Assembly (NCBI GenBank): GCA_001798855.1
Contig: MGQQ01000104.1
Location: 1,093 to 65,092 of the forward strand
DNA from: Deltaproteobacteria bacterium RBG_16_49_23
GTDB taxonomy: Bacteria; Desulfobacterota; BSN033; UBA1163
Reading direction: 5' to 3'
Length of the DNA stretch: 64,000 nt
Shown: positions 1,765 through 53,803 of the stretch, in pieces
Layout: each line of letters opens with the position of its first letter
Position numbering within the stretch: position 1 is the first letter of the stretch
Notes under the pieces: generated by a model
Told to the model about the DNA's origin: nothing
Seen by the model: only the letters and a program-made list of their open reading frames with translations
Databases searched by the model: none
Translations under genes and position numbers: made by a program

Positions 1765-1834
1765 ATTAATCAGATGTTTATTCAATTATAGACCGATTAA
1801 TAAATGCTTAAAAAAGAAGCCGAGTGGTAAAAAA

Positions 1835-2860
1835 ATGCGAGTGGCAATGTATTATAACAACAGGGATGTAAGGCTGGAGGAAATGCCGACTCCAACCGTT
1901 GGCCCTGGAGAATTATTGGTTAAGGTGGTTTCCAGCGGAATCTGCGGCAGTGATGTGATGGAGTGGTACCGGATCAAGAAGGCGCCCCGGGTGCTCGGTC
2001 ATGAGATTGCAGGAGAAATTGCCAAGGTAGGCGAGGGGGTTAAAAATTATAAAATCAATGATCGAGTCTTTGTCTCCCACCATGTCCCCTGTAATACCTG
2101 TCATTATTGTCTGAATAGTCATCACACGGTTTGCGATACCCTTCGGACGACCAACTTCGACCCGGGTGGTTTTGCGGAATATATCCGGGTTCCTGAAATC
2201 AATGTGGACCGGGGCACATTTATATTGCCCGAAGAGATTTCATTTGAGGAGGGAGTCTTCATTGAACCTCTGGCCTGCGTTCTCAGGGGACAGAGATTGG
2301 CAAAGCTAAGACCCGGCCAGAGCGTCTTTGTTATCGGGAGTGGGATCTCCGGAATTCTTCATATCGCGCTGGCAAAAGCATCAGGCGCAGGGAGGGTGAT
2401 TGCGTCCGATATCAATGAATTTCGCCTGAAAGCAGCCAAACGGTTCGGAGCGGATGAGGTCCTTTCTGGAGAAGAGGCGAGTCCAGAAAGGATTCGTCAG
2501 ATCAATCATGGAAGATTGGCGGATCTGGTGATCGTCTGTGCGGGAAGCCTTTCGGCCTATAGACAGGCGCTCGAATGTGTTGACCGGGGAGGAACGGTTT
2601 TATGTTTTGGACTCCTTCAACCGGGAATCGATATTTCTTTTCCGTTTTTCGATTTCTGGAATGACGGAATCACCCTTCTGCCGACTTATGGCGGAGCTCC
2701 CATCGATATTCTTCAGGCCATTGAATTGATTCAGGCTCATCGCCTTCCACTGAAGGAGATGATTACCCATCGTCTCCCTCTGAAAAAGATAGGTCTTGGG
2801 TTTAAACTTGTCTCCGAAGCCAAAGAGTCCATCAAAGTCATCATCGAACCACATCAATAA
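1835..2860 (+). CDS. Zn-dependent alcohol/threonine/sorbitol dehydrogenase family (MDR) oxidoreductase
   Basis: GICGSDVMEW, GHEIAGEIAKVGEGV and GSGISG (Rossmann) motifs. The start was moved to ATG 1835 because the upstream part of the ORF lies in a repeat. Confidence 0.8.
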   Translation: MRVAMYYNNRDVRLEEMPTPTVGPGELLVKVVSSGICGSDVMEWYRIKKAPRVLGHEIAGEIAKVGEGVKNYKINDRVFVSHHVPCNTCHYCLNSHHTVCDTLRTTNFDPGGFAEYIRVPEINVDRGTFILPEEISFEEGVFIEPLACVLRGQRLAKLRPGQSVFVIGSGISGILHIALAKASGAGRVIASDINEFRLKAAKRFGADEVLSGEEASPERIRQINHGRLADLVIVCAGSLSAYRQALECVDRGGTVLCFGLLQPGIDISFPFFDFWNDGITLLPTYGGAPIDILQAIELIQAHRLPLKEMITHRLPLKKIGLGFKLVSEAKESIKVIIEPHQ

Positions 2861-2959
2861 TTAATCAATAATTAATTTGACAGGATAATGATATTTTGAT
2901 AGGAATTTAGTCACCCATATTAACCCTCCTATATTAAGAGGGACCAGGAGTAAACGAGG

Positions 2960-3469
2960 ATGGAAGAAAAAGTGCTTGTGAAAAAGGACCTGGAGGAAAT
3001 ATTTACAGGTTTTGAAAAACGCCAGGATGAGAAATTGAAGGGACTTGAGGTGCGGATAGACCAAAAGATGACTGGCCTTGAGGTACGGATAGATCAAAAA
3101 ATGGCAGGCCTTGAAGCACGGATGGATCAGAAAATAGAAAGCCTTGAAGTACGAATGGATCAAAAAATGACAAGCCTTGAGGGACGAATGGATCAAAAAA
3201 TGACAGGCCTTGAGGCGCGGGTCATCGATCAATTTAATATCATCTCTGAAGGGTTGATGGACCAAATAAATCTTTTAGCAGAGGGGCATACAGGAATTGT
3301 TGAACGGCTTGACCGGATTGAAAAGGAAAATGAACGTCAACATTTAGAAACCCGCGCCCTTGTAAAACTTTCCTTTTCTGAGCTGGATAGGCGACTCACT
3401 GATTTAGAGTCAAAAGTAATGGATTTACAAGAGTGGAGAAAACAAGTTGAATCGAGATTACGGATATAG
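2960..3469 (+). CDS. Coiled-coil protein with tandem 11-aa repeats (hypothetical)
   Basis: 169 aa containing about 6.5 copies of GLEVRIDQKMT-like units. No known catalytic motif. Confidence 0.5.
   Translation: MEEKVLVKKDLEEIFTGFEKRQDEKLKGLEVRIDQKMTGLEVRIDQKMAGLEARMDQKIESLEVRMDQKMTSLEGRMDQKMTGLEARVIDQFNIISEGLMDQINLLAEGHTGIVERLDRIEKENERQHLETRALVKLSFSELDRRLTDLESKVMDLQEWRKQVESRLRI
3043..3240 (+). repeat. 33-bp tandem direct repeat, ~6 copies, coding
   Basis: ggccttgaggtacggatagatcaaaaaatgaca-like units are repeated in-frame within CDS 2960-3469. Confidence 0.8.
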
Positions 3470-3504
3470 AGGGATTAAGTCTTAAAGAAGAGTCCACGGC
3501 TTAA

Positions 3505-4163
3505 TTGCCGTTTAAAGAGATTCCTTCATTCTTCCTCAAGCAACATTCCATGGGTCAGAATTTCCTTGACATTCAGAAGGAATATTTACAAAAAGTTTGG
3601 TTGCGGCCGATTCGAGAACTTGAGAGTCACTTCCTGCCCGATATGACAGAAACTGTCTTCACTTTCAGGCATTCGGAGAGCCCTGCGAACTCCATCCCCC
3701 GGAGATCATTCTTGGTGGCGAACCCCTTCGCAGTGCAGAAGGTATTCTGATTGCCATGTATGCGAGCTTTGTTGCGAACGAGCCGGTTCAACTTAAACCT
3801 TTGAAGTCCTTCAAACAATTTCCAGGAGGGATGGGCTATCAGGGGGCGTTTGCCATGAATGCCGAGAAGGTTCTCCATCCTCATGTCATTGCCATCGAGA
3901 AGCGAAAGGAAGAGATCGTCCTGAGGTTTTCCGGGCATCCTAATCCGGATGCCCCAAGGTGCGATTTCTCTTTTACCCTCTACCCGCTCCCCCGTGTCGC
4001 CCTTTACTACATCTTCAATCTACCCGATGAAGAGTTCCCTGCAAGAGCCACCTGCCTCTTCGCCTCCAATGCAGATCACTTCGTGCCTGTGGCTGGCCTT
4101 GCCGATGTGGCCGAATACACCGCCAAGAAGATCATTCAACTGGTCACAGAAGTGTTGAGCTAA
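3505..4163 (+). pseudogene. Conserved hypothetical gene interrupted by a frameshift near 3640-3660. Possibly DUF3786-like, but this is not verified.
   Basis: ORF 3505-3750 (frame 1) and ORF 3756-4163 (frame 0) overlap. Frame 0 is open from 3624 and reads HFQAFGEPCELHPPEIILGGEPLRSAEGILIAMYASF continuously into the downstream ORF with no in-frame ATG before 3756. Confidence 0.45.
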
Positions 4164-4176
4164 AGAATATACGGGG

Positions 4177-6081
4177 CTACAGGTAACCTTGCTTTTTGAG
4201 ATTGATCATGAGGATGGAGAGGGCAGCGGGAGTGACCCCTGAGATTCTAGATGCCTGACCTAGAGAGATGGGCCTGATTTTAATGAGTTTCTCCGATACC
4301 TCTGTGGAGAGGCCGATGATCGAATGAAAATCAAAATTTTCAGGAAAGTTCACCTCCTCCAGTTTTTTAAATCGCTCGATCAGTTCCATCTGCCTCTTGA
4401 TATAACCGTCATATTTGATCTGAATCTCGACCTGTTCGCACACCTCTTTTTTCAGGCCTTCCAAGTCTTGATCAAAATTTAAAAGGTGCGAAAAATGAAT
4501 TTCAGGCCTTTTCAATAATTCCCGGAGGGAAGCTTCTTTCTTCAGGGAAGTGCATCCCCAATGATGGAGGATTTCATTGTTTTCCCTGGTGGGGGTGACT
4601 TTCGACTCTGAAATTTTAATAAGGGTCTTTTCGATTGCAGACCTTTTCTTTAAAAAGATCCGATAATCCTCTTCTTTTATCAATCCGATTTGATGGCCTA
4701 TTTCTCTCAACCTCAGATCGGCATTATCTTCTCTTAAATGGAGACGATGTTCTGCCCTGGAGGTAAACATTCGGTATGGCTCTGAGGTCCCTTTTGTGAC
4801 CAGGTCATCGATCAATACGCCGATATAGGCATCGGAGCGTTTTAGGACGAGAGGCTCTCTTCCCTCGATATAAAGAGCGGCATTGATTCCGGCCATCACT
4901 CCCTGTGCGGCTGCCTCTTCGTAGCCCGATGTCCCGTTGATCTGTCCGGCGTTGAAGAGCCCTTCAATCTTTTTCGTTTCAAGGGTGGGTTTTAGTTCTG
5001 TCGGATCGACAAAGTCATATTCGATGGCATAACCCGGCCTGATGATCTCGACGTTTTCAAGGCCCCGGATCGATCTCAGCATCTTTATCTGGATGTCGAG
5101 CGGGAGGCTGGTGGAGATTCCATTCGGGTAGATCTCTTTCGTATCTCTTCCATCAGGTTCGAGAAAGATCTGATGCCTCTTCTTCTCTGCAAAACGGACC
5201 ACCTTGTCCTCAATCGAAGGACAGTACCTGGGACCGACTCCTTTAATGATTCCACAATAGAGAGGAGACCGGTCAAGGCCGCTCTTAATAATCTCGTGAG
5301 TGGCCGGGTTTGTATAGGTCATGTAGCAGGGGACCTGTTCCCTTTCGATCTTTTCAGTTGAAAAGGAGAATGGGATCGGAGGTTCATCTCCATACTGAGG
5401 AGTGAGTTCTGAAAAGTCGATGGTATTGCCATCGAGCCTTGGCGTGGTCCCGGTCTTAAGCCTTCCTATGCGAAATCCCAATCTTTTGAGCGATTCGGAT
5501 AAGCCTATGGAAGGAGGGTCGCCTATCCTGCCGGATGGAAAATGGGTCAGGCCGATATGGACAAGACCGTTTAAAAAGGTTCCCGGGGCAAGGATAAGGG
5601 TTTTTCCCTGAATCATATCGTCTGCATCTGTCCTCACTCCAATGACCTTATCCCCGTCAACGATGATCTCTTCAACGGTGGCTTGTTTGACGGTGAGATC
5701 TTTTTGACTCTCCACCGTCTTGATCATTCGGAGCCGGTAGGCCTGGCGGTCCACCTGAGCCCTGGAGGAACGAACCGCCGGTCCTCTTGTGGTGTTGAGC
5801 TGTTTGAACTGGATTCCCGTCTCATCCGTCGCCCTGGCCATTTCTCCGCCCAGGGCATCGATCTCTTTCACCAGGTGACCTTTCGCCAGACCTCCGATGG
5901 CTGGGTTGCAGGACATGTAGCCGATCTGATCGACCTTCTGGGTGATGAGAAGGGTAGGGTGGCCCATCCGGGAACAGGCCAGGGAGGCTTCAATTCCGGC
6001 ATGGCCGCCCCCCGCCACAATCACATCAAAGCGCTTTCGAAACTGGATAGAGAATTGACTCATATGAAATTTATCTTCCAA
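4177..6081 (-). CDS. mnmG: tRNA uridine-5-carboxymethylaminomethyl modification enzyme MnmG/GidA
   Basis: [26 protein letters not shown]-binding N-terminus. The ~630-aa length and overall layout match MnmG. The start may be ATG 6063 (MSQFS). Confidence 0.92.
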
Positions 6082-10949: not shown

Positions 10950-11015
10950 TCCCCCTTTGGAAAAGGGGGGCGACCTGCCTGCGCGAAGCCGCTTCGGCGA
11001 AGGCAGGGGGGGGAT
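10950..11015. repeat. Repeat family A element (ccccctttggaaaagggggg plus the cctgcctgcgcgaagccgcttcggcgaaggcagg hairpin)
   Basis: The cctgcctgcgcgaagccgcttcggcgaaggcagg module recurs at 24488, 27528, 45065 and 52620. Confidence 0.7.
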
Positions 11016-11123
11016 TTTAAGAACAAATGTTTTCTAAGGTTCTTCGGTTTTTCGACAGGGAAGTCTTTGAGAGTACGGACGGAGTGATGGAAGGGATATG
11101 GAGTTGTTTATGATTTATAAAAT

Positions 11124-16349: not shown

Positions 16350-16848
16350 GGTTTCCTCCCTTTCTAATAAATGTTAAGCACGAATATCGAAGCTCGAAAT
16401 TCGTTACAAATCCGAATGACCAAAATGCAAATGATCACTTTGTGATATTCTCTCCGCCCGGTTCTTTTTCAAAGAGGAACTTGAAATGGGGATCGAGATC
16501 TCTTGAATAGATCATATTATATGAATGCAATGCTAAAGTTGAAATGTCAACTGATAAAAGTTCTTTTTATCACAATGTATTCCGGGGAGAAACCGTAACA
16601 CCCTGTTAAAGCTCGCAGGGCAAGGCCCTGCCGCAGGAGCCTTGCATGAGAGGCGACCCTAAAGGGCTGCCCTACGATTAAATTTATAAAATCGCTCAAT
16701 TTAGGTAAAAATTATTTGAGCAAAAATTCACAGGTTGTATATAATATTTATATAGTTCGGTCAAGCCCTTTTGGGGCCAGATAAAAAAAACTTGTTAACT
16801 TACGATTTTTATTGTATATAGCCACAAAAAAAGAAAGGAGGTCTTTTA

Positions 16849-24468: not shown

Positions 24469-24477
24469 TCTCTTATT

Positions 24478-24560
24478 CCTCTCCCCTTGCGCCTGCCTGC
24501 GCGAAGCCGCTTCGGCGAAGGCAGGGGAGAGGGGAAGGGTGAGGGTAAGGGTGAGGGGAA
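24478..24560. repeat. Repeat family A element
   Basis: ctccccttgcgcctgcctgcgcgaagccgcttcggcgaaggcaggggagaggggaagggtgagggtaagggtgagggg. Confidence 0.7.
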
Positions 24561-27394: not shown

Positions 27395-27572
27395 ATCCCC
27401 CTTCATCCCCCTTTGGTCTCCGACCCAGAGCGGTCTCTGACCTGGGGGGCAAAAGGGGGAAATTCCTTTTCCTCCCTTTGGCCGCCGGCCCATAGGGCCT
27501 CTGGCCCGGAGGGCAAAGGGAGGTGGCCTGCCTGCGCGAAGCCGCTTCGGCGAAGGCAGGGGAGGGATTTTA
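27395..27572. repeat. Repeat family A composite element, multiple hairpins
   Basis: ccccctttggtctccgacc...ggccgccggcccatagggcctctggcccggagggcaaagggagg...cctgcctgcgcgaagccgcttcggcgaaggcaggggagggatttt. Confidence 0.7.
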
Positions 27573-32966: not shown

Positions 32967-32989
32967 GAATTACAAATCCAAATTTCAAA

Positions 32990-33262
32990 ATCCAAATGTC
33001 AAATGAATGTCAAAGTTCAAAATCAGATAACAATTTAACGTTTTAATAATGAAGTCTGATCAGGATATGGAAACCCAAATCCCCCTCGGTCCCCTTTTTG
33101 CAAAGGGGGAAGTATCTCTCCTCCCTTTGGCAAAGGGAGGGGGGAGGGATTTTATGGAGCCTTTTACAAACCGCTATAGTGTTATAAAATCAGGAATTTT
33201 AATATTTGAACTTTAGGTTTGATTTGGCATTTGAACTTTGGCATTTGGCATTTTTGGATTTA
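32990..33262. repeat. Composite repeat: family G inverted arms (tccaaatgtcaaatg.../...catttgaactttggcatttgg) around a family A core at 33078-33155
   Basis: Arms are caaagttcaaa / ttgaactttgg. The core is ccccctcggtcccctttttgcaaaggggga...tccctttggcaaagggagggggg. Confidence 0.55.
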
Positions 33263-37931: not shown

Positions 37932-38942
37932 ATGCGAGTTTTAGCGATTGAGACGTCGTGTGATGATACCGGGGCGGCGGTTGTTCTGAACGGAAGGAAA
38001 ATCCTCTCCAATGTGGTCTCATCACAGATCTCTGTCCATCAGAAGTACGGTGGAGTCGTTCCGGAGCTGGCTTCGAGAAAACATATCGAAGCAATCGTCC
38101 CCATGGTCAACGAGGCTCTGGAGCGGGCAGGGGTCTCCCTGAAAGAGATCGATGGTATTGCGGTCACTCAGGGGCCAGGTCTTGTGGGGTCCCTCCTGGT
38201 GGGCCTCTCATTTGCGAAATCCTTATCCTTTGCTTCAGGAGCGCCCCTCATAGGAGTGAATCATATTGAAGCGCACCTCTCGGCCATTTTTCTCGAGGAG
38301 AAAGCCCCGCGATTCCCTTTTATCGGTCTGGTGGTTTCCGGGGGCCACACGTCTCTCTTCCGTGTGGATGGGTTCGGAAAATATATAAGATTAGGGCAGA
38401 CGCGAGACGATGCGGCAGGAGAGGCTTTTGATAAAGTCGCAAAACTGCTGGGACTGGGATATCCCGGCGGACCGATCATTGATGAACTTTCGATGACAGG
38501 GAATCCAAAGGCGATCCGGTTTCCAAGGGCCTCCCTCGGGAAGGATTCGTTTGATTTCAGTTTCAGCGGGGTGAAGACAGCAGTAGTCAATTTCGTGAAG
38601 GCTCATCCCGCACCGCCTGGAGGTTTTCCGGAAGAGATGGTCCGCAATATCGTTTCCAGTTTTCAGGAGGCAGTTGTTGATGTCCTGGTGAAAAAGACTT
38701 TTCAGGCGGCCCAACACCAGGGTTTGAAGAGGGTGGTTCTCTCAGGAGGGGTAGCTGCCAATCGGGTTCTCCGGCAAAGAATGGAAGAAGAAGCATCAAA
38801 ACAGAAGATACGGGTCCATATTCCCTCTCCTGCCTTCTGCACGGACAATGCAGCCATGGTGGGTGTGGTTGGATATGAATATTTGAAGCGGGGTGTTCGA
38901 TCACCTTATTCACTCAATGCCTTTTCCAATTTACCACTTTAA
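37932..38942 (+). CDS. tsaD: tRNA N6-adenosine threonylcarbamoyltransferase TsaD
   Basis: MRVLAIETSCDDTGAAVV N-terminus and the typical Kae1/TsaD layout. Confidence 0.92.
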   Translation: MRVLAIETSCDDTGAAVVLNGRKILSNVVSSQISVHQKYGGVVPELASRKHIEAIVPMVNEALERAGVSLKEIDGIAVTQGPGLVGSLLVGLSFAKSLSFASGAPLIGVNHIEAHLSAIFLEEKAPRFPFIGLVVSGGHTSLFRVDGFGKYIRLGQTRDDAAGEAFDKVAKLLGLGYPGGPIIDELSMTGNPKAIRFPRASLGKDSFDFSFSGVKTAVVNFVKAHPAPPGGFPEEMVRNIVSSFQEAVVDVLVKKTFQAAQHQGLKRVVLSGGVAANRVLRQRMEEEASKQKIRVHIPSPAFCTDNAAMVGVVGYEYLKRGVRSPYSLNAFSNLPL

Positions 38943-38949
38943 GATATTG

Positions 38950-39040
38950 CTCCCTCTCCCTTGACGGGAGAGGGTTGGGGTGAGGGTGAAAACGTTTTCC
39001 CCCTCCTCATTATCTCCTCCCGCCAGGGGAGGAGAAATAT
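38950..39040. repeat. Repeat family A element (ctctcccttgacgggagag plus ctcctcccgccaggggaggag)
   Basis: Related to 39929-40024 and 53610-53722. Confidence 0.65.
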
Positions 39041-39065
39041 TTTAGTGAAATATTTGATTGCTTTA

Positions 39066-39905: not shown

Positions 39906-39928
39906 ACGATGGGAATGACTAAGTATTA

Positions 39929-40024
39929 CCCTCCCCCTTGACGGGGGAGGGTAAGGGTGGGGGTGATGCATGAGTCCCCCCTCACCTCAATCCTCTCCCG
40001 CAAAGGGGAGAGGAAGTATTTTAG
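39929..40024. repeat. Repeat family A element
   Basis: ccctcccccttgacgggggagggtaagggtgggggtga...cctctcccgcaaaggggagagg. Confidence 0.65.
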
Positions 40025-40121
40025 GCGGCTATTTTCCATGTAAGTGGAAAAGGTAGATTCTATTTGAAAATTCCCTGAGGGATGATTATTTTAAATTGAA
40101 ATTGTCGCGGGGGGTACCATA

Positions 40122-42884: not shown

Positions 42885-42897
42885 TTTTAACCTGTTT

Positions 42898-42966
42898 ACC
42901 CCGTTAGAAATAATGCCCCGCTTCTCTGTAGCGGGGTTCAATGCCCCGCTGGAATTTCTAACGGGG
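42898..42966. repeat. Repeat family C hairpin element (ccccgttagaaa ... tttctaacgggg)
   Basis: Outer 12-bp inverted termini with an inner ccccgcttctctgtagcgggg hairpin. Copies at 37738 and within pheT at 48105. Confidence 0.7.
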
Positions 42967-43023
42967 TTTATTAAGAAGTGGAAGATAAGTTATTGAGAAA
43001 AAAGACTTTTTAAGACAAAAAAA

Positions 43024-44972: not shown

Positions 44973-45180
44973 CTCCCCTTTCCTCCCTTTGCCCTCCGGG
45001 TCGGAGACCACTCTGGGTCGGAGACCAAAGGGAGGAATTACCCCTCTTTGGTAAAGAGGGGCGACCTGCCTGCGCGAAGCCCCGCCTCCAGAAGCCTTGC
45101 GGAGGGCAGGCGCTTCGGCGAAGGCAGGGGGGAGATTTTCAGAAGAGTATGTCTTCTCAATTATGGACTCCTTAGTAAAA
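44973..45180. repeat. Composite repeat: family A core plus inverted family H arm
   Basis: cccctttcctccctttgccctccgggtcggagacc...cctgcctgcgcgaagcc..ggcgaaggcaggggggagatttt then cagaagagtatgtcttctcaattatggactcc. Confidence 0.65.
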
Positions 45181-46117: not shown

Positions 46118-46300
46118 AAAAATATTTGAAATTTCCCCAATATTATCCCTCCCCCTTTGACGGGGGAGGGTGAGGGTGGGGGGGGACGAAAGAAACTAAA
46201 TTCTCCCTCCCCTTCATCCCCTCCACCAGGGGAGGGGAGATTTTTTTGGGATTTTTCTGTATGTTAGAGATAAAATCTCAGAATTCAATTTGTAAGGCTA
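46118..46300. repeat. ~170-bp repeat, copy 1 (family J), between rpmI and rplT
   Basis: aatatttgaaatttcccc...ccctccccctttgacgggggagggtgagggtgg...ggggaggggagattttt...ttagagataaaatctcag is near-identical in order and sequence to 51748-51930. Confidence 0.7.
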
Positions 46301-46881: not shown

Positions 46882-47922
46882 GTGGGTCTTCAAAGGAAGA
46901 GATCGTTGAAAGAAGAGCTGGAAAAGATTCGAGAGGAGTGCCAGGCCGCCCTCTCTCTGGCCAAGACGGAGCCGGAGATCTCCGAAATCCGGATCAGGAT
47001 ATTGGGGAGGAAGGGAAGCCTGACCCAACTACTCAAGCGTTTGGGAACGCTTCCCGAAGCTGAGCGAAGAGAGATCGGCCGAAGGGCGAATGAGATCAAA
47101 GAGGATCTGGAGGCAAGGATTGAGGAAGGTCTCCTCCATATCCAGGAACACGAGAGAAGGGAATCGCTTGAAAAGGAGAGGATCGATGTGACCCTTCCAG
47201 GCAGGAGGATGGTTTCCGGAAGAAAGCATCCCCTCACCCAAATCCTCGATGAGATCATCCATATCTTCTCGCGGCTGGGCTTTGAGGTGGTTGAAGGCCC
47301 GGAAGTGGAACTGGACTATTACAATTTTGAAGCCCTCAACATTCCAAAGGGACATCCCGCCAGGGAGATGCAGGCCACCTTCTTTATTTCGGAGGATGTG
47401 GTTTTGAGAACGCATACCTCGCCTGTCCAGGTAAGGACAATGGAAAAAAAGAGGCCGCCTGTCCGCATGATCTGTCCGGGAGCGGTCTACCGTTGCGATT
47501 CGGATCCGACACACTCTCCCATGTTTCATCAGGTCGAAGGCCTCCTGGTGGACAGGGGAATCACGTTTTCCGACCTTAAAGGCGTATTAACCGTCTTTGT
47601 CCACCAGATGTTTGGAAGAGAGACAAGACTGAGGTTCCGTCCCAGTTTCTTTCCCTTCACGGAGCCGAGCGCGGAGATCGACATCGAGTGCTTTATTTGC
47701 GGGGGAAAGGGATGCGGGGTCTGCTCAAACACGGGATGGCTCGAAATTTTAGGCTCCGGCATGGTCGATCCGGCGGTCTACCGGTTCGTGGACTACGACC
47801 CTGAAGAGGTGACCGGCTTTGCCTTTGGCATGGGGATCGAGCGGATTGCGATGCTGAAGTATGGCATCAACGACATCCGCCTTTTCTTTACAAACGATCT
47901 GAGGTTCCTTAGACAATTCTGA
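46882..47922 (+). CDS. pheS: Phenylalanine--tRNA ligase alpha subunit
   Basis: Class II motifs ([14 protein letters not shown]; [20 protein letters not shown]). Confidence 0.93.
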
Positions 47923-47945
47923 GAGAAGGAAATTCGAAAGTCCGT

Positions 47946-48048
47946 GAGAGCGTAAGGCGCAAGTCGCAAGGGGTTTAAACTCCTTACCCCTAACGCCTTA
48001 CACCTAACGAATAGAAGATTTCGATATTCGGATTTAGGATTTAGGGGC
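47946..48048. repeat. Repeat family E, copy 1, upstream of pheT
   Basis: gagagcgtaaggcgcaagtcgcaaggggtttaaactccttacccctaacgccttacacctaacgaatagaa is ~93% identical to the reverse complement of 50646-50714. It is followed by ttcgatattcggatttaggatttagggg. Confidence 0.75.
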
Positions 48049-50637
48049 ATGAAGGTTAGTCTCAACTGGCTCAGGGATTACGTGGACATCCGGATGGGGG
48101 TTCACCCCGTTAGAAATTCCAACGGGGCATTACCCCCCCCCGGAATTATTCTAAAATCTAACCCCGCTACAGCCGCCGGCCCAGGCTCCGCCCCAGAGGG
48201 AGGGCCTCCCTCCGGGGCAGAAGCCCTTCCGGGGCGGAGCCTGGCCCGGAGGGAGCAGCGGGACATTATTTCTAACGGGGTGAAGGAGTTAATCAACCTT
48301 CTGACCATGGGAGGGTTAGAGGTTGAAGCGGCCACACCAACAGGCCAGGGATTTGAGAAGATCGTTGTGGCTGAGATTGAATCCATCCGGAGGCACCCCA
48401 GTGCGGACCGTCTTTCCCTGGTCGAGGCGAAAACCTCCGGAGAGAAATTTTCGATCGTCTGCGGCGCCACGAATATCCGTGAAGGGCAGAGAGTTCCGCT
48501 GGCCCTGGTCGGAACGAAACTCCCCGGCGGCCTTGAGATCAAGAGGTCGAAGATCAGAGGGGAGGTTTCCGAGGGAATGCTCTGTTCGGAGATCGAGCTG
48601 GGTTTGGGTCAGGATGCCACCGGGATCATGATCCTCGACCGCGACGCCCCCCTGGGCGTGAGCGTGGGGGAGACCCTCGGATTGACGGATACGATTCTCG
48701 ATATCAGCATCACACCCAATCGTCCGGATTGCCTCTGTGTGATCGGAGTGGCAAGAGAGATTGCGGCTCTTACACATCAGAAGATGAAGTATCCGGGCCT
48801 GTCGCTTTCCGACACGGGAAAAGAGATTCACCAAAAAACGTCCGTGACCCTTCTGGACCCGGACCTCTGTCCCCGATATGTGGCGCGCATGATCGAAGGG
48901 GTGAAGATCGGCCCCTCTCCGCACTGGATCCGAAACCGGCTGGAGAAGGCAGGCATTCGCTCCATCAATCAAGTCGTCGATGTGACCAACTATGTGATGA
49001 TGGAGTATGGCCAGCCCCTCCACGCTTTCGATTTTGAACTGCTGGAGGAGGGGAGAATTGAGGTCCGGAGAGCCCGGAAGGACGAGGGGTTTACCACACT
49101 GGACGGAGTCAAGAGAGTCCTTGATGAAGAGATGCTCATGATCTGCGATGGAGTTAAACCGGTGGCCATTGCCGGTGTGATGGGAGGGCTCAACTCGGAG
49201 ATCAGGGCCGAGACCCGGACCGTCCTTCTGGAGAGCGCCTACTTCCATCCGATGAATAATCGAAGGACTTCTAAAAGGCTCGGTTTTGAGACAGAAGCCT
49301 CCTACCGGTTCGGAAGGGGGATTGATTACGGAGGATGTCTGAATGCGGCCAACCGCGCAGCCTCATTGATTGCCGAACTGGCGGGAGGCAAGGTCGTTGA
49401 AGGCGTGGTGGATGCTTATCCGAATCCCATCCGGCCCAATCCGATCCGTTTGAGCATCCTCAACGCCAATCGGATCCTGGGGACAGAGATCCCGGCCCAA
49501 CAGGTCAGGGTTTATCTGGAGGATCTGGAACTGGATGTCCGTGTAGAGGATGAAGCGACCCTGAGCGTAACCCCCCCTTCCTTTCGTGGCGATATCGAGA
49601 GGGAGATCGATCTGATTGAGGAGGTGGCGCGCATGGATGGATATGAGAAGATCCCGCTCACTCTTCCGAAGGGGCCTCCTTCTCCCGAAGAGATGAGCCG
49701 GGAGTTGATCCTTGAGCAGAAGGCAAAAGATCACCTCATCCAGCATGGTTACAACGAGGTGATCACTTATAGCTTTACGGCCCCCCGCTCTTTGAATGGG
49801 CTCGGCCTCTCTCCGGACGATCCGAGGGGGAAGTTCCTTCCCATCCTGAACCCTCTGACAGAGGATTCTTCCGTGATGAGAACCTCATTGATACCGGGCT
49901 TGATGGAGACCGTCCGGTATAATATCTCTTATAAGAATGTCAACCTCAGAATCTTCGAGTTGAAAAGGGTCTATCTGACCGCTGAAGGGGAACGACTTCC
50001 AAGAGAGGTTAAATATCTGACAGGCCTGGCCATGGGAATGGAAGGGGATCCCCATTGGGCCTCTTTAACCAGGCCGGTCGATTTTTACGATGTCAAGGGT
50101 TGCATCGAGGATCTCTTCGAAGGGTTGCAGGTCAAAGGGGTAAAGTTTGACAGGGCTGAGGATGTTCCCTATCTTCATCCCGGAAAGGCATCGAAGGTCC
50201 TTCTCGGAAAAGAGGTTCTGGGCGTTCTGGGCGAAGTCCATCCCCATGTATTGGCCCATCATGAGATTCACGGGAAGGTCTATCTCTTCGAGATCGATTT
50301 CGGCCGGATGGTGAACTATGCCGTAGAGGAAAGGAGATTCCGGCCCTTGCCGAAATTTCCCGCAGTCCACCGGGACCTCTCCATCGTGGTTGAGGATCAT
50401 CTTGAAGCGGAAAAAGTGGAAGAGGCCATCCGGATGCTTCCGCAGCCTTTTATCGACGAAGTCAATCTCTTCGATGTCTATCAGGGGGCGCCTGTTCCTC
50501 AAGGGAAGAAGAGCCTCTCCTATCGCATCCGGTATCAAGCCAATGACCGGACCCTGACAGACGATGAAGTGAACCAATATCACGAGAAGGTCATCTCCCG
50601 GTTGAGGGAAATCTTTAAGGCCGAATTGAGAGGATAA
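48049..50637 (+). CDS. pheT: Phenylalanine--tRNA ligase beta subunit, with an in-frame ~60-aa insertion near the N-terminus
   Basis: MKVSLNWLRDYVDI ... LTMGGLEVE N-terminus and B3/4 and B5 domains. C-terminal FDVYQG ... anticodon-binding-like domain. 862 aa. Confidence 0.9.
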   Translation: MKVSLNWLRDYVDIRMGVHPVRNSNGALPPPGIILKSNPATAAGPGSAPEGGPPSGAEALPGRSLARREQRDIISNGVKELINLLTMGGLEVEAATPTGQGFEKIVVAEIESIRRHPSADRLSLVEAKTSGEKFSIVCGATNIREGQRVPLALVGTKLPGGLEIKRSKIRGEVSEGMLCSEIELGLGQDATGIMILDRDAPLGVSVGETLGLTDTILDISITPNRPDCLCVIGVAREIAALTHQKMKYPGLSLSDTGKEIHQKTSVTLLDPDLCPRYVARMIEGVKIGPSPHWIRNRLEKAGIRSINQVVDVTNYVMMEYGQPLHAFDFELLEEGRIEVRRARKDEGFTTLDGVKRVLDEEMLMICDGVKPVAIAGVMGGLNSEIRAETRTVLLESAYFHPMNNRRTSKRLGFETEASYRFGRGIDYGGCLNAANRAASLIAELAGGKVVEGVVDAYPNPIRPNPIRLSILNANRILGTEIPAQQVRVYLEDLELDVRVEDEATLSVTPPSFRGDIEREIDLIEEVARMDGYEKIPLTLPKGPPSPEEMSRELILEQKAKDHLIQHGYNEVITYSFTAPRSLNGLGLSPDDPRGKFLPILNPLTEDSSVMRTSLIPGLMETVRYNISYKNVNLRIFELKRVYLTAEGERLPREVKYLTGLAMGMEGDPHWASLTRPVDFYDVKGCIEDLFEGLQVKGVKFDRAEDVPYLHPGKASKVLLGKEVLGVLGEVHPHVLAHHEIHGKVYLFEIDFGRMVNYAVEERRFRPLPKFPAVHRDLSIVVEDHLEAEKVEEAIRMLPQPFIDEVNLFDVYQGAPVPQGKKSLSYRIRYQANDRTLTDDEVNQYHEKVISRLREIFKAELRG
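48105..48280. mobile_element. Family C repeat element inserted in-frame inside pheT
   Basis: Bounded by ccccgttagaaa / tttctaacgggg, identical to the termini of the intergenic copies at 37738 and 42898. Contains a long internal inverted repeat gcccaggctccgcccc...ggggcggagcctggcc. It encodes a Pro/Gly/Ala-rich segment absent from canonical PheT N-termini. Confidence 0.65.
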
Positions 50638-50645
50638 ACCCCATT

Positions 50646-50752
50646 TTCTATTCGTTAGATGTAAGGCGTTAGGGGTAAGGAGTTCAAACCCCTTGCGACC
50701 TGCGCCTGACGCTCTAACGTTTTTTCGGATTTCGGGCTTCGGATTTAGACTC
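50646..50752. repeat. Repeat family E, copy 2 (inverted), downstream of pheT
   Basis: ttctattcgttagatgtaaggcgttaggggtaaggagttcaaaccccttgcgacctgcgcctgacgctc then ttcggatttcgggcttcggatttagactc. Confidence 0.75.
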
Positions 50753-50788: not shown

Positions 50789-51082
50789 ATGACGAAGGTT
50801 GATATTGTGGAGGCCATTTACGAGAAGGTCGGGTTTTCTAAGAAAGAGGTGGCCAAGATTGTGGAGTCCATCTTCGATATCATCAAGGAGCATCTCCAGC
50901 GCGATGACAAGATCAAGATCTCGGGTTTTGGGAATTTTGTCATCCGGAACAAGAGGTCGAGGCGGGGCCGCAACCCCCAGACCGGGGATGACATCGAAAT
51001 CACTCCGAGACGGATTTTAACCTTTAAACCGAGTCAGGTGTTGAAGGCCGGCCTCAACCGAAAAGAGACACCGGCGGAATAG
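50789..51082 (+). CDS. ihfA: Integration host factor alpha subunit (HU/IHF family)
   Basis: MTKVDIVEAIYEKVGFSKKEVAKIVE...GFGNFVIRNKRSRRGRNPQTGDDIEI. It follows pheT, the conserved position for ihfA. RBS aaggagg lies upstream. Confidence 0.8.
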   Translation: MTKVDIVEAIYEKVGFSKKEVAKIVESIFDIIKEHLQRDDKIKISGFGNFVIRNKRSRRGRNPQTGDDIEITPRRILTFKPSQVLKAGLNRKETPAE

Positions 51083-51747: not shown

Positions 51748-51930
51748 TTCTATCCAAAGATATTTGAAATTTCCCAATAATCCCCTCCCCCTTCGACGGG
51801 GGAGGGTTAGGGTGGGGGTGGACAAAATAGAGACCATTGGGTCCCCCCTTCCCTTCATCCCCTCCCGCCGAGGGGAGGGGAGATTTTTGGGAAACATTTC
51901 AGAGAAAGTTAGAGATAAATTCTCAGACTT
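51748..51930. repeat. ~170-bp repeat, copy 2 (family J), upstream of the ybjQ-like gene
   Basis: agatatttgaaatttcccaataatcccctcccccttcgacgggggagggttagggtggggg...ggggaggggagatttttggg...ttagagataaattctcag. Confidence 0.7.
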
Positions 51931-52470: not shown

Positions 52471-52700
52471 AATCCTTCCTGAGGGAAGAATTTCCCCTCT
52501 TTAGCCGCCGGCCCGTGGGGCCTCTCTCCGAGCCATGAGGCTCTCTGAGCCGGTGGCTGACCCGGAGGGCAAGGAGGGGATAGGGGAGATTTTTATAATA
52601 TACGTAGCGCCCTCATTTACCTGCCTGCACGAAGCCCGCCTCCAGAAGCCTTGCGGAGGGCAGGCGTTTCGGCGAAGGCAGGTTGAGGGCGGAATCCGTT
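52470..52700. repeat. Repeat family A composite element
   Basis: cccctctttagccgccggcccgtggggcctctc...cccggagggcaaggagggga...cctgcctgcacgaagcccgcctccagaagccttgcggagggcaggcgtttcggcgaaggcagg. Confidence 0.7.
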
Positions 52701-53245: not shown

Positions 53246-53608
53246 ATGGGGATGACTCTGCTTAAAAATGAAAAGGATGCCCTTACAGACCTCAAGGAAG
53301 AGATATCAAAGAAATATAAATTGCTCTGGATGAAACTTATTGGCTCTAAAGCAAGAGGAGACTTTGATGAAGAATCAGATATTGATATTGTAATTGCCCT
53401 TGAAAATACTGACTGGGATATTGAAAGGGATATATTCGAAACATGTTTTTATTTAGGTTTAAAATACGACATCGTTATTTCACCAATCATTTATTCTGAG
53501 AAAGATATCAATGATACATTCACTCTAATAACCCCATTTTACAGAACAGTTGAGTCAGAGGGCATCCTGATATCAAGCCCAAATCCCGATTTAGAAATTT
53601 CAAAATAG
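53246..53608 (+). CDS. Nucleotidyltransferase-domain protein (MNT-type), orphan
   Basis: GSKARGDFDEESDIDIVI motif. No HEPN partner gene downstream. AT-richer than the core genes. Confidence 0.65.
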   Translation: MGMTLLKNEKDALTDLKEEISKKYKLLWMKLIGSKARGDFDEESDIDIVIALENTDWDIERDIFETCFYLGLKYDIVISPIIYSEKDINDTFTLITPFYRTVESEGILISSPNPDLEISK

Positions 53609-53609
53609 T

Positions 53610-53722
53610 TCCCTCTCCCTTGACGGGAGAGGGTTAGGGTGAGGGTGAGGGTGAGGGTGAATAGTTCACCTTTAAGGTTACCCCTCCCCCTCGCCCCCTC
53701 CCGCAAGGGGAGGGGGATTTAC
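53610..53722. repeat. Repeat family A element with (gtgaggg)n run
   Basis: ccctctcccttgacgggagagggttagggtgagggtgagggtgagggtgaa...cccctccccctcgccccctcccgcaaggggagggggattt. Confidence 0.7.
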
Positions 53723-53803
53723 CTGAAAAACAATTTTCTACCTCTGTTTTAGGGTGAAGGAAGAGATCAAGGCGCTCATTGAATATAGGCTTCAAGAATT
53801 TAA

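Follow-up and report, generated by a model that had tools for sequence, protein, structure and literature searches.

ERIC sequences are imperfect palindromes of ~127 bp that reside in transcribed intergenic regions, are conserved across species and have no known transposase (PMC10969869). They are carried by E. coli genomes, and in Yersinia they exert orientation-dependent, RNase E-dependent effects on mRNA (PMC10969869). For Correia elements, cleavage by RNase III and the presence of an IHF site have been described (PMC10969869). REP units are 20-40 nt long, bear a tag (GTAG or CGTC) and have RAYT transposases associated with them (PMC3733652). Repeats built on heptanucleotides are known as well. 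In Geobacter metallireducens, intergenic sequences in multiple copies are abundant, and some of their families contain four heptanucleotide repeats (PMC2700814); in Beggiatoaceae and cyanobacteria TAACTGA heptamer repeats are found just upstream of start codons, including those of ribosomal-protein operons, for which a post-transcriptional action has been proposed (PMC4679880). The present analysis concerns an element of which two inverted copies bracket pheT, the gene for an essential aminoacyl-tRNA synthetase subunit, in a stretch of 64,000 nucleotides of contig MGQQ01000104.1 from Deltaproteobacteria bacterium RBG_16_49_23 (hereafter the window). Very probably, both copies belong to one dispersed, non-coding, imperfectly palindromic and non-autonomous repeat family of the ERIC/BIME kind. 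The family is resident in intergenic spacers of uncultured Syntrophales-type Thermodesulfobacteriota, and its flanking of pheT would be a by-product rather than a device.

The Inverted Repeat around pheT

A preliminary description of this DNA had reported that pheT is flanked by a pair of ~70-bp inverted repeats, each accompanied by a direct ttcggattt motif. The pair is real and longer than reported: a repeat finder delimits inverted arms at 47929-48019 and 50643-50733 that are 91 nt each, 89% complementary and 2623 nt apart, and the earlier coordinates were right to within 1 nt. Copy A is situated between the stop codon of pheS (47920-47922) and the ATG of pheT (48049), and copy B between the pheT stop codon (50635-50637) and the ihfA ATG (50789). 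A 34-nt core occurs twice in the window at one mismatch or fewer, a match that 100 dinucleotide-preserving shuffles failed to produce even once. Neither the core scan nor the nhmmer profile described below found a third copy in the 64-kb window. The direct motif is present at both copies (48017-48037 and 50728-50748, 86% identical), where it belongs to an outer inverted arm of the same element and is no separate feature. Because the element is a palindrome with arms, an inverted pair also displays “direct” arm motifs: copy A has retained its right arm and the inverted copy B its left arm, which therefore places the motif at both.

A Dispersed Repeat Family

The core 20-mer CCTTACCCCTAACGCCTTAC was scanned for exactly in a genome collection with one genome per species, which yielded 12 loci where, by our own estimate, ~1 would be expected by chance. 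The whole architecture of ~100-130 nt is common to six of the 12, all of them in deltaproteobacterial metagenome-assembled genomes (MAGs): three loci in Syntrophaceae UBA2208, one in a Thermodesulfobacteriota MAG and two in “delta proteobacterium” MAGs. In metagenome contigs, a slightly degenerate core pattern retrieved 100 loci. About half of the pattern hits, in Nitrospirota, Nitrospinota, Aminicenantes, Firmicutes and others, proved to be generic CGTGAGG/CCTTACC heptamer hairpins and were excluded by profile score. The profile was built with nhmmer from 20 clear members, and at a membership cut-off of at least 65 bits it returned 52 matches, ~50 of them distinct, which have the same architecture and include second copies devoid of the exact 20-mer. 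A single MAG or contig has up to two or three copies in the parts sampled. Forward-strand profile scores are about four times the reverse-strand scores, so that the orientation of each copy is unambiguous. Of all members, A and B resemble each other most, as reciprocal nearest neighbors with 91.7% core identity as against 89% and 86% for the next best.

Heptamers of this kind also build hairpins or tandem arrays, with CGTGAGG/GGTAAGG opposed to CCTTACC/CCTGACG, in loci L002-L004, L009, L011 and L013 and in many of L014-L113. These loci come from many metagenome contigs and from unrelated phyla (Nitrospirota, Nitrospinota, Aminicenantes, Syntrophomonadaceae) and are devoid of the other parts of the element.

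No match to the element was found by blastn in plasmid and phage collections, by a scan of viral contigs, or by blastn with a word size of 11 in 5,426 E. coli genomes (28 Gb). Neither copy matched Rfam, be it at gathering thresholds or at E ≤10, and the sequence strings of the element turned up in no paper of the full-text library searched. The repeat family is thus apparently undescribed so far.

Architecture of the Element

Members of the family range from 75 to 143 nt, full copies with arms measuring ~130-143 nt, and form modular, imperfect palindromes. They are non-coding, as their heptamers contain stop codons in all frames. The core is a hairpin of ~70 nt in which three to four CGYRAGG heptamers on the 5' side stand opposite four CCTTACN/CCTAACG heptamers on the 3' side, with CCGTGAGAGCG-TGAGGCGYAAGTCGYAAGKGG-TTTA-CCCCTTACCCCTAACGCCTTACYCCTTRCGAAT as consensus of the family alignment. 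In many copies, the core is enclosed by outer inverted arms, AAATYCGAAGCACGAAAT ... ATTTCGATATTCGGATTT, the ends of which may also be written AAATCCGAAGCACGAAAT...ATTTCGTGCTTCGGATTT. The consensus left arm reads AAATTCGAAGCACGAAATYYAGAATT and the consensus right arm, found in most full-length copies, GGATTTCGATATTCGGATTTCGGATTT; the arms themselves consist of GAAATCC/GGATTTC-type heptamers. As for terminal inverted repeats, such arms are present in many copies and also on a second core type, but the ends of the element are fuzzy and many copies are devoid of one or both arms. In that second type, the same outer arms (AAATCCGAAGCACGAAAT...ATTTCGATATTCGGATTT) surround an AT-rich palindromic core, and the element ends just before a Shine-Dalgarno sequence and ATG. 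At etfB-etfA, the family alignment contains copies reduced to the core. The element is modular, since the same arms surround different cores and cores occur by themselves.

Copy A fills the pheS-pheT spacer, and the AGGA/AGGGG of its right arm probably serves as the ribosome-binding site of pheT. The minimum free energy of its core as sense RNA is -26.2 kcal/mol. The left arm of copy B, read on the + strand at 50720-50750, has also been given as ttttttcggatttcgggcttcggattt. An IHF-site-like motif in the right arm, WATCAANNNNTTR, was considered and set aside as a poor fit by eye.

Gain and Loss at the pheT Junctions

Orthologous loci were reached through PheT homologues, and both junctions were compared with those of the window, where the pheS-pheT spacer holds copy A (126 nt) and the pheT-ihfA spacer copy B (151 nt). 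The gene order thrS-infC-rpmI-rplT-pheS-pheT-ihfA-merR-ybjQ is conserved in the relatives. Contig L114, from the same strain in another sample (ENA ERZ4902961; PheT 100% identical), has copies A and B identical to those of the window and in the same orientation. The organism is also present in ENA sample ERZ4902948. The closest relatives present other contents. At 87% PheT identity, L115 has a pheS-pheT spacer of 74 nt with an unrelated CCCTCCCC/GGGGAGGG hairpin repeat and a pheT-ihfA spacer of 28 nt with no element. L117 (85%) has 68 nt with other small hairpins at the former junction and 227 nt at the latter, where an AT-rich-core element with the same AAATCCGAA...TTCGGATTT arms occupies the spacer that holds copy B in the window. 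L118 (84%), finally, has 184 nt with an element bearing GTTCGGAG-type arms, followed beyond pheT by 65 nt with a small hairpin insert of ~37 nt.

Elements are thus polymorphic for presence or absence at orthologous sites, with an empty site in L115 and other inserts in L117 and L118. Judged from this comparison, copies A and B are both lineage-specific gains, and the two spacers are hot spots for independent insertions of small palindromes. Since the two copies are closer to each other than to any other member and related bacteria do not have them at these sites, A and B would have arisen by spread within the lineage. The proposal of two insertions of a small element, made in the preliminary description, agrees well with the ~50 distinct copies elsewhere, with the empty or otherwise filled junctions of the relatives and with the kinship of A and B; further copies of the unit, which had been left to be sought, are abundant outside the window.

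A peculiarity of L114 is that pheT (1795-4383) was called there as two genes, of 768 aa and of 83 aa, the latter an FDX-ACB fragment, with junction sequences identical to those of the window. Towards the 3' end of pheT, an indel from assembly or a frameshift at strain level probably accounts for this split.

Orientation and Sequence Constraint

Across the family, ~35 or more different junctions are occupied, including rplW-rplB, etfB-etfA, fixC-fixX, livH-livM and a position upstream of a tRNA gene. At the loci of named MAGs, the element lies between rplW and rplB, etfB and etfA, fixC-like and fixX-like, livH and livM, or cinA-like and NUDIX genes, and in each case it has the orientation of the genes. 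The upstream stop codon is usually 0-25 nt away, and a Shine-Dalgarno sequence and ATG follow ~10-30 nt downstream. In a strand-symmetric test based on open reading frames (ORFs), 24 copies were sense-intercistronic and 2 antisense (binomial p = 1e-5), a bias of ~10:1; four of 5 further, ambiguous copies look sense. Copy A has the usual sense orientation, while copy B belongs to the antisense minority. Seven family copies reside between convergent genes. Two loci, L038 and L062, have two copies each, in the same orientation, and no other family locus has an inverted pair.

In L080 (~674-804) and L094 (5436-5561), a sense element is found immediately upstream of a tRNA gene (ggggtgtcgtcaagcggtaagacac...), and thus the family is not confined to the starts of protein-coding genes.

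Some sites are shared by diverged contigs, namely etfB-etfA (L007, L024, L038 and L097), rplW-rplB (L012 and L083) and those of three further groups. At these sites the element is 0.79-0.90 identical, compared with 0.42-0.77 (mostly ~0.6) at third codon positions of the flanking genes, and its higher conservation holds also for copies that were not chosen by the 20-mer. Evolution of the element is therefore slower than that of neutral sites; selection or homogenization to a constrained family consensus could be the cause.

What the Element Might Do

We infer the function of the element from its setting. Given its operon context, the element would be transcribed with the operon and would then form a stem-loop in the intercistronic RNA, bounded by the stop codon of one gene and the ribosome-binding site of the next. 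At the RNA level, selection might operate on how stable the mRNA segments are or how they are processed, or through tolerance of translational coupling, and it would account for both the ~10:1 sense bias and the conservation above synonymous sites. A joint reading, which is tentative and in our view rather doubtful, takes the element beyond selfish DNA: it would be an intercistronic RNA module, specific in its orientation and retained by its Syntrophales-type hosts, that sets relative mRNA stability, processing or translation in operons of subunit pairs such as rplW-rplB, etfB-etfA and pheS-pheT, and the A/B pair of this locus could also form a ~95-bp RNase III stalk that excises the pheT message.

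Several results weigh against a mobile family selected at the RNA level. For the core, the predicted fold is on average more stable on the antisense than on the sense strand (-30.7 versus -27.5 kcal/mol, n=50, p = 4e-5). RNAalifold returned a weak consensus (-4.4 kcal/mol) with essentially no covariation, in an alignment whose right arm is fixed by the search pattern and whose heptamers permit slipped registers, which leaves a strand-specific RNA fold conserved across the family at most putative. The gene calls on metagenome contigs that underlie the orientation test are ORF heuristics and not curated annotation. The family sample was ascertained through the conserved 20-mer, and the excess conservation could reflect this ascertainment or concerted evolution. 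As for mobility, we infer it from the presence/absence pattern: neither a consistent target-site duplication nor sharp termini emerged from the extended family alignment or from the comparison of the filled window sites with the empty L115 site, and no transposase was noticed beside copies in the ORF lists inspected, the flanks not having been scanned against transposase families. Lastly, the window holds two copies only, and the relatives sampled through pheT (~43 kb) hold none. A sense-specific RNA structure had also been tried as a candidate by a G.U asymmetry test and was ruled out, the antisense folding better.

Alternative Explanations for the Pair

Each copy is predicted to fold as a long bulged hairpin (z = -3.5 for the B region), and both might be a duplicated transcription signal, that is, a bidirectional intrinsic terminator or a promoter cassette at each end of pheT. 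The seven copies between convergent genes are consistent with this, as is the + strand of copy B, where the hairpin is followed by G+T6 (T6 at 50720-50725, read by eye), a feature that, between the two copies, only B has; such a sequence resembles an attenuator or intrinsic terminator, and transcription beyond pheT may be attenuated by it. A consensus scan called no sigma-70 promoter or canonical terminator at either copy, with stem and loop limits that cannot detect a 65-nt bulged hairpin. Copy A and most members have no U-tract after the hairpin, most copies are inside operons that need downstream expression (rplW-rplB, etfB-etfA, pheS-pheT), where termination would be harmful, and the strong orientation bias is unlike a symmetric bidirectional terminator. 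A transcription signal is thus an unlikely explanation for the pair, and the “promoter- or terminator-bearing” part of the preliminary description is left with the hairpin and G+T6 of copy B, no consensus signals having been called and most copies being inside operons. The position of the sense element immediately upstream of start codons and its conservation above synonymous sites might also evoke a dedicated cis-regulatory RNA of the riboswitch, ribosomal-protein-leader or T-box-like type that controls pheT and ihfA. Such control is very unlikely, given that the downstream genes are unrelated (ribosomal protein, electron transfer flavoprotein, ABC permease, NUDIX, tRNA and others), that no Rfam match was obtained even at E ≤10, that covariation is absent and the antisense folds better, and that copy B is antisense to ihfA while the closest relatives have no such element at these junctions.

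Two other explanations make use of the inverted arrangement itself. On a pheS-pheT-ihfA transcript, A could pair with B over ~95 bp and loop out pheT, whose mRNA would be freed by RNase III processing, as at the stalks on either side of 16S and 23S rRNA. The predicted duplex has -153 kcal/mol compared with -34.7 and -37.5 for the local hairpins (together ~-72), values that ignore loop-closure cost and kinetics. The otherwise rare antisense orientation of copy B and the cleavage of Correia-containing transcripts by RNase III (PMC10969869) also speak for such a stalk. Local hairpins would form first in transcription, however, and translating ribosomes would oppose pairing over 2.6 kb; moreover, inverted pairs are missing from the other family loci and the relatives do without either copy, all of which makes the stalk quite unlikely. 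The 91-nt repeats could instead be recombination sites that flip pheT, in a phase-variation-like or frequent RecA-mediated manner. [quoted passage not shown] Nevertheless, Pfam reveals no invertase or recombinase among the neighboring genes, gene order is conserved in relatives, and in L114, the sole independent assembly, the segment runs the same way. The remaining copies of the family are solitary or share one orientation, the 11% divergence of the arms argues against frequent recombination or gene conversion, and a flip would set the essential synthetase subunit antisense to its operon, a lethal polarity effect. Inversion of pheT, raised in the preliminary description, is therefore extremely improbable as a programmed mechanism, while rare RecA-mediated events may occur.

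Features of the Locus and Other Palindromes in the Window

The coordinates of both copies, of the genes around them and of related features are collected in Table 1.

Table 1. Copies of the element, genes at the locus and further palindromic features; positions are those of the window unless a contig is named.
Feature	Position	Strand	Evidence and remarks
Copy A, whole	47923..48050	+	Sense, fills pheS-pheT spacer; nhmmer 116.9 bits, 31.5 on reverse strand
Copy A, truncated left outer arm ggaaattcgaaagt	47928..47941	+	Family alignment; one unit retained, begins 5 nt past pheS stop
Copy A, core CCGTGAGAGCGTAAGGCGCAAGTCGCAAGGGG-TTTAAA-CTCCTTACCCCTAACGCCTTACACCTAACGAAT	47942..48012	+	Heptamer-built imperfect hairpin; conserved block of family alignment
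Copy A, right outer arm agatttcgatattcggatttaggatttagg	48016..48045	+	First direct motif; ends 3 nt before pheT ATG
Copy B, whole	50649..50751	-	Antisense, in pheT-ihfA spacer; nhmmer 82.4 bits (-), 17.3 (+); identical in independent contig L114
Copy B, core hairpin	50650..50721	-	Right outer arm missing or degenerate beside pheT stop codon
Copy B, left outer arm	50720..50750	-	gtctAAATCCGAAGCCCGAAATCCGAAaaaa on -, ttttttcggatttcgggcttcggatttagac on +; second direct motif
pheS	46882..47922	+	Pfam tRNA-synt_2d, Phe_tRNA-synt_N; start codon uncertain, relatives 338 aa
pheT (bracketed gene, 862 aa)	48049..50637	+	Pfam B3_4, B5, tRNA_synthFbeta, FDX-ACB, tRNA_bind; homologues found
ihfA/HU-family gene	50789..51082	+	Directly 3' of copy B; Pfam Bac_DNA_binding; exact protein also on contig L001
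Elements with AT-rich core	L117 6465-6594; L026 5032-5157; L029 967-1083; L068 ~3480-3587
Other GC-rich palindromes, first set	10959-11019; 24477-24537; 27512-27572; 45050-45140; 52635-52682		Examples
Other GC-rich palindromes, second set	38930-39048; 39907-40025; 46126-46251; 51762-51892; 53589-53728		Examples

The window is crowded with short interspersed palindromic repeat families. At least two other GC-rich families, CCTGCCTGCGCGAAGCCGCTTCGGCGAAGGCAGG and CCCTCCCCCTTGACGGGGGAGGG...GGGGAGGGGAG, are found in many of its spacers. In L008, L017, L025, L110 and L075, members of the CCTGCCTGCGCGAAGCCGCTTCGGCGAAGGCAGG family are inserted inside the outer arms of the pheT-flanking element, and hence the insertions are nested. 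Arm-like motifs with no core occur as well, one at 16383-16416 (cgaatatcgaagctcgaaattcgttacaaatccgaa), directly before a possible ATG at 16416, and another at 32974-32993 on the - strand (ggattttgaaatttggattt); they may be remnants or other members of an arm-bearing superfamily.

The pheT gene itself carries an exact in-frame insertion of 60 codons at 48100-48279, after ...DYVDIRMG, which is a palindromic element in its own right, bounded by a perfect 17-nt inverted repeat (TTCACCCCGTTAGAAAT/ATTTCTAACGGGGTGAA) and with an inner hairpin at 48163-48262. Nearly all PheT relatives are 802 aa long and do not have this insertion. At the same point, a version of 37 aa is found in lineage P0002 (83% identical), and the insertion of the window therefore contains a second, nested palindrome of ~69 nt. 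A related copy of ~81 nt is present at 42887-42967, just after tRNA-Val. In this it is like the palindromic elements of Rickettsia, which also insert in frame; the gene concerned here is essential.

Comparison with Known Repeat Systems

A single repeat family explains together three oddities of this locus, namely the long pheT-flanking spacers, the repeat inverted across the gene and its “direct” motif, and it removes the temptation to read pheT as an invertible segment. It also documents a widely distributed repeat family in poorly studied syntrophic deltaproteobacteria. For annotation, it matters that such repeats lengthen intergenic spacers and can supply ribosome-binding sites; related small palindromes even lie in frame within pheT. 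Because of its ~10:1 sense bias, its conservation above synonymous sites, its construction from heptamers and its modular arms with an exchangeable core, the family lends itself well to asking if ERIC-like palindromes are parasites, passengers that the host tolerates, or mRNA elements that it has recruited.

REP units and REPINs differ from the element, whose core is ~70 nt long, which has no conserved GTAG or CGTC tag at either end and which shows no sequence similarity in E. coli; no RAYT gene was noticed in the flanks inspected, these not having been scanned for RAYT. With MITEs such as Correia/NEMIS, RUP and Nezha (PMC10969869), the element shares its small size, non-coding nature, multiple copies, inverted arms, position beside gene starts, and gain and loss among close relatives. 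It departs from them in that no target-site duplication was found and that its ends are fuzzy heptamer arrays instead of sharp terminal inverted repeats. The multicopy sequences of Geobacter, the TAACTGA repeats and the cyanobacterial STRR sequences have other heptamers (GGACCGG and TAACTGA, compared with CGYRAGG/CCTTACN), which are direct tandem repeats, whereas those of the element form an inverted pair that makes up a hairpin.

BIMEs of E. coli are associated with mRNA stabilization and attenuation. They and the element are both mosaic or modular small palindromes of intercistronic and 3' regions. A further likeness is that the window has several additional small palindrome families, inserted beside or within one another. 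ERIC sequences, also named IRU, of Enterobacteriaceae and Vibrionaceae are found in both orientations. They have no sequence homology with the element, as attested by the lack of a blastn match in E. coli, and their hosts belong to another phylum; the element is also unlike them in its heptamer build, its modular arms and exchangeable core and its ~10:1 sense bias. The two are alike in size (~130 nt with arms), in their intergenic location within operons, in conservation, in presence that varies from site to site and in having no known transposase. The family has the palindrome size and location of ERIC-like repeats and their conservation across species, with at least 24 copies between co-directional genes and several named MAG lineages, and it would, by its operon context, be transcribed as they are. 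By analogy, ERIC would thus be its closest functional counterpart among the systems described.

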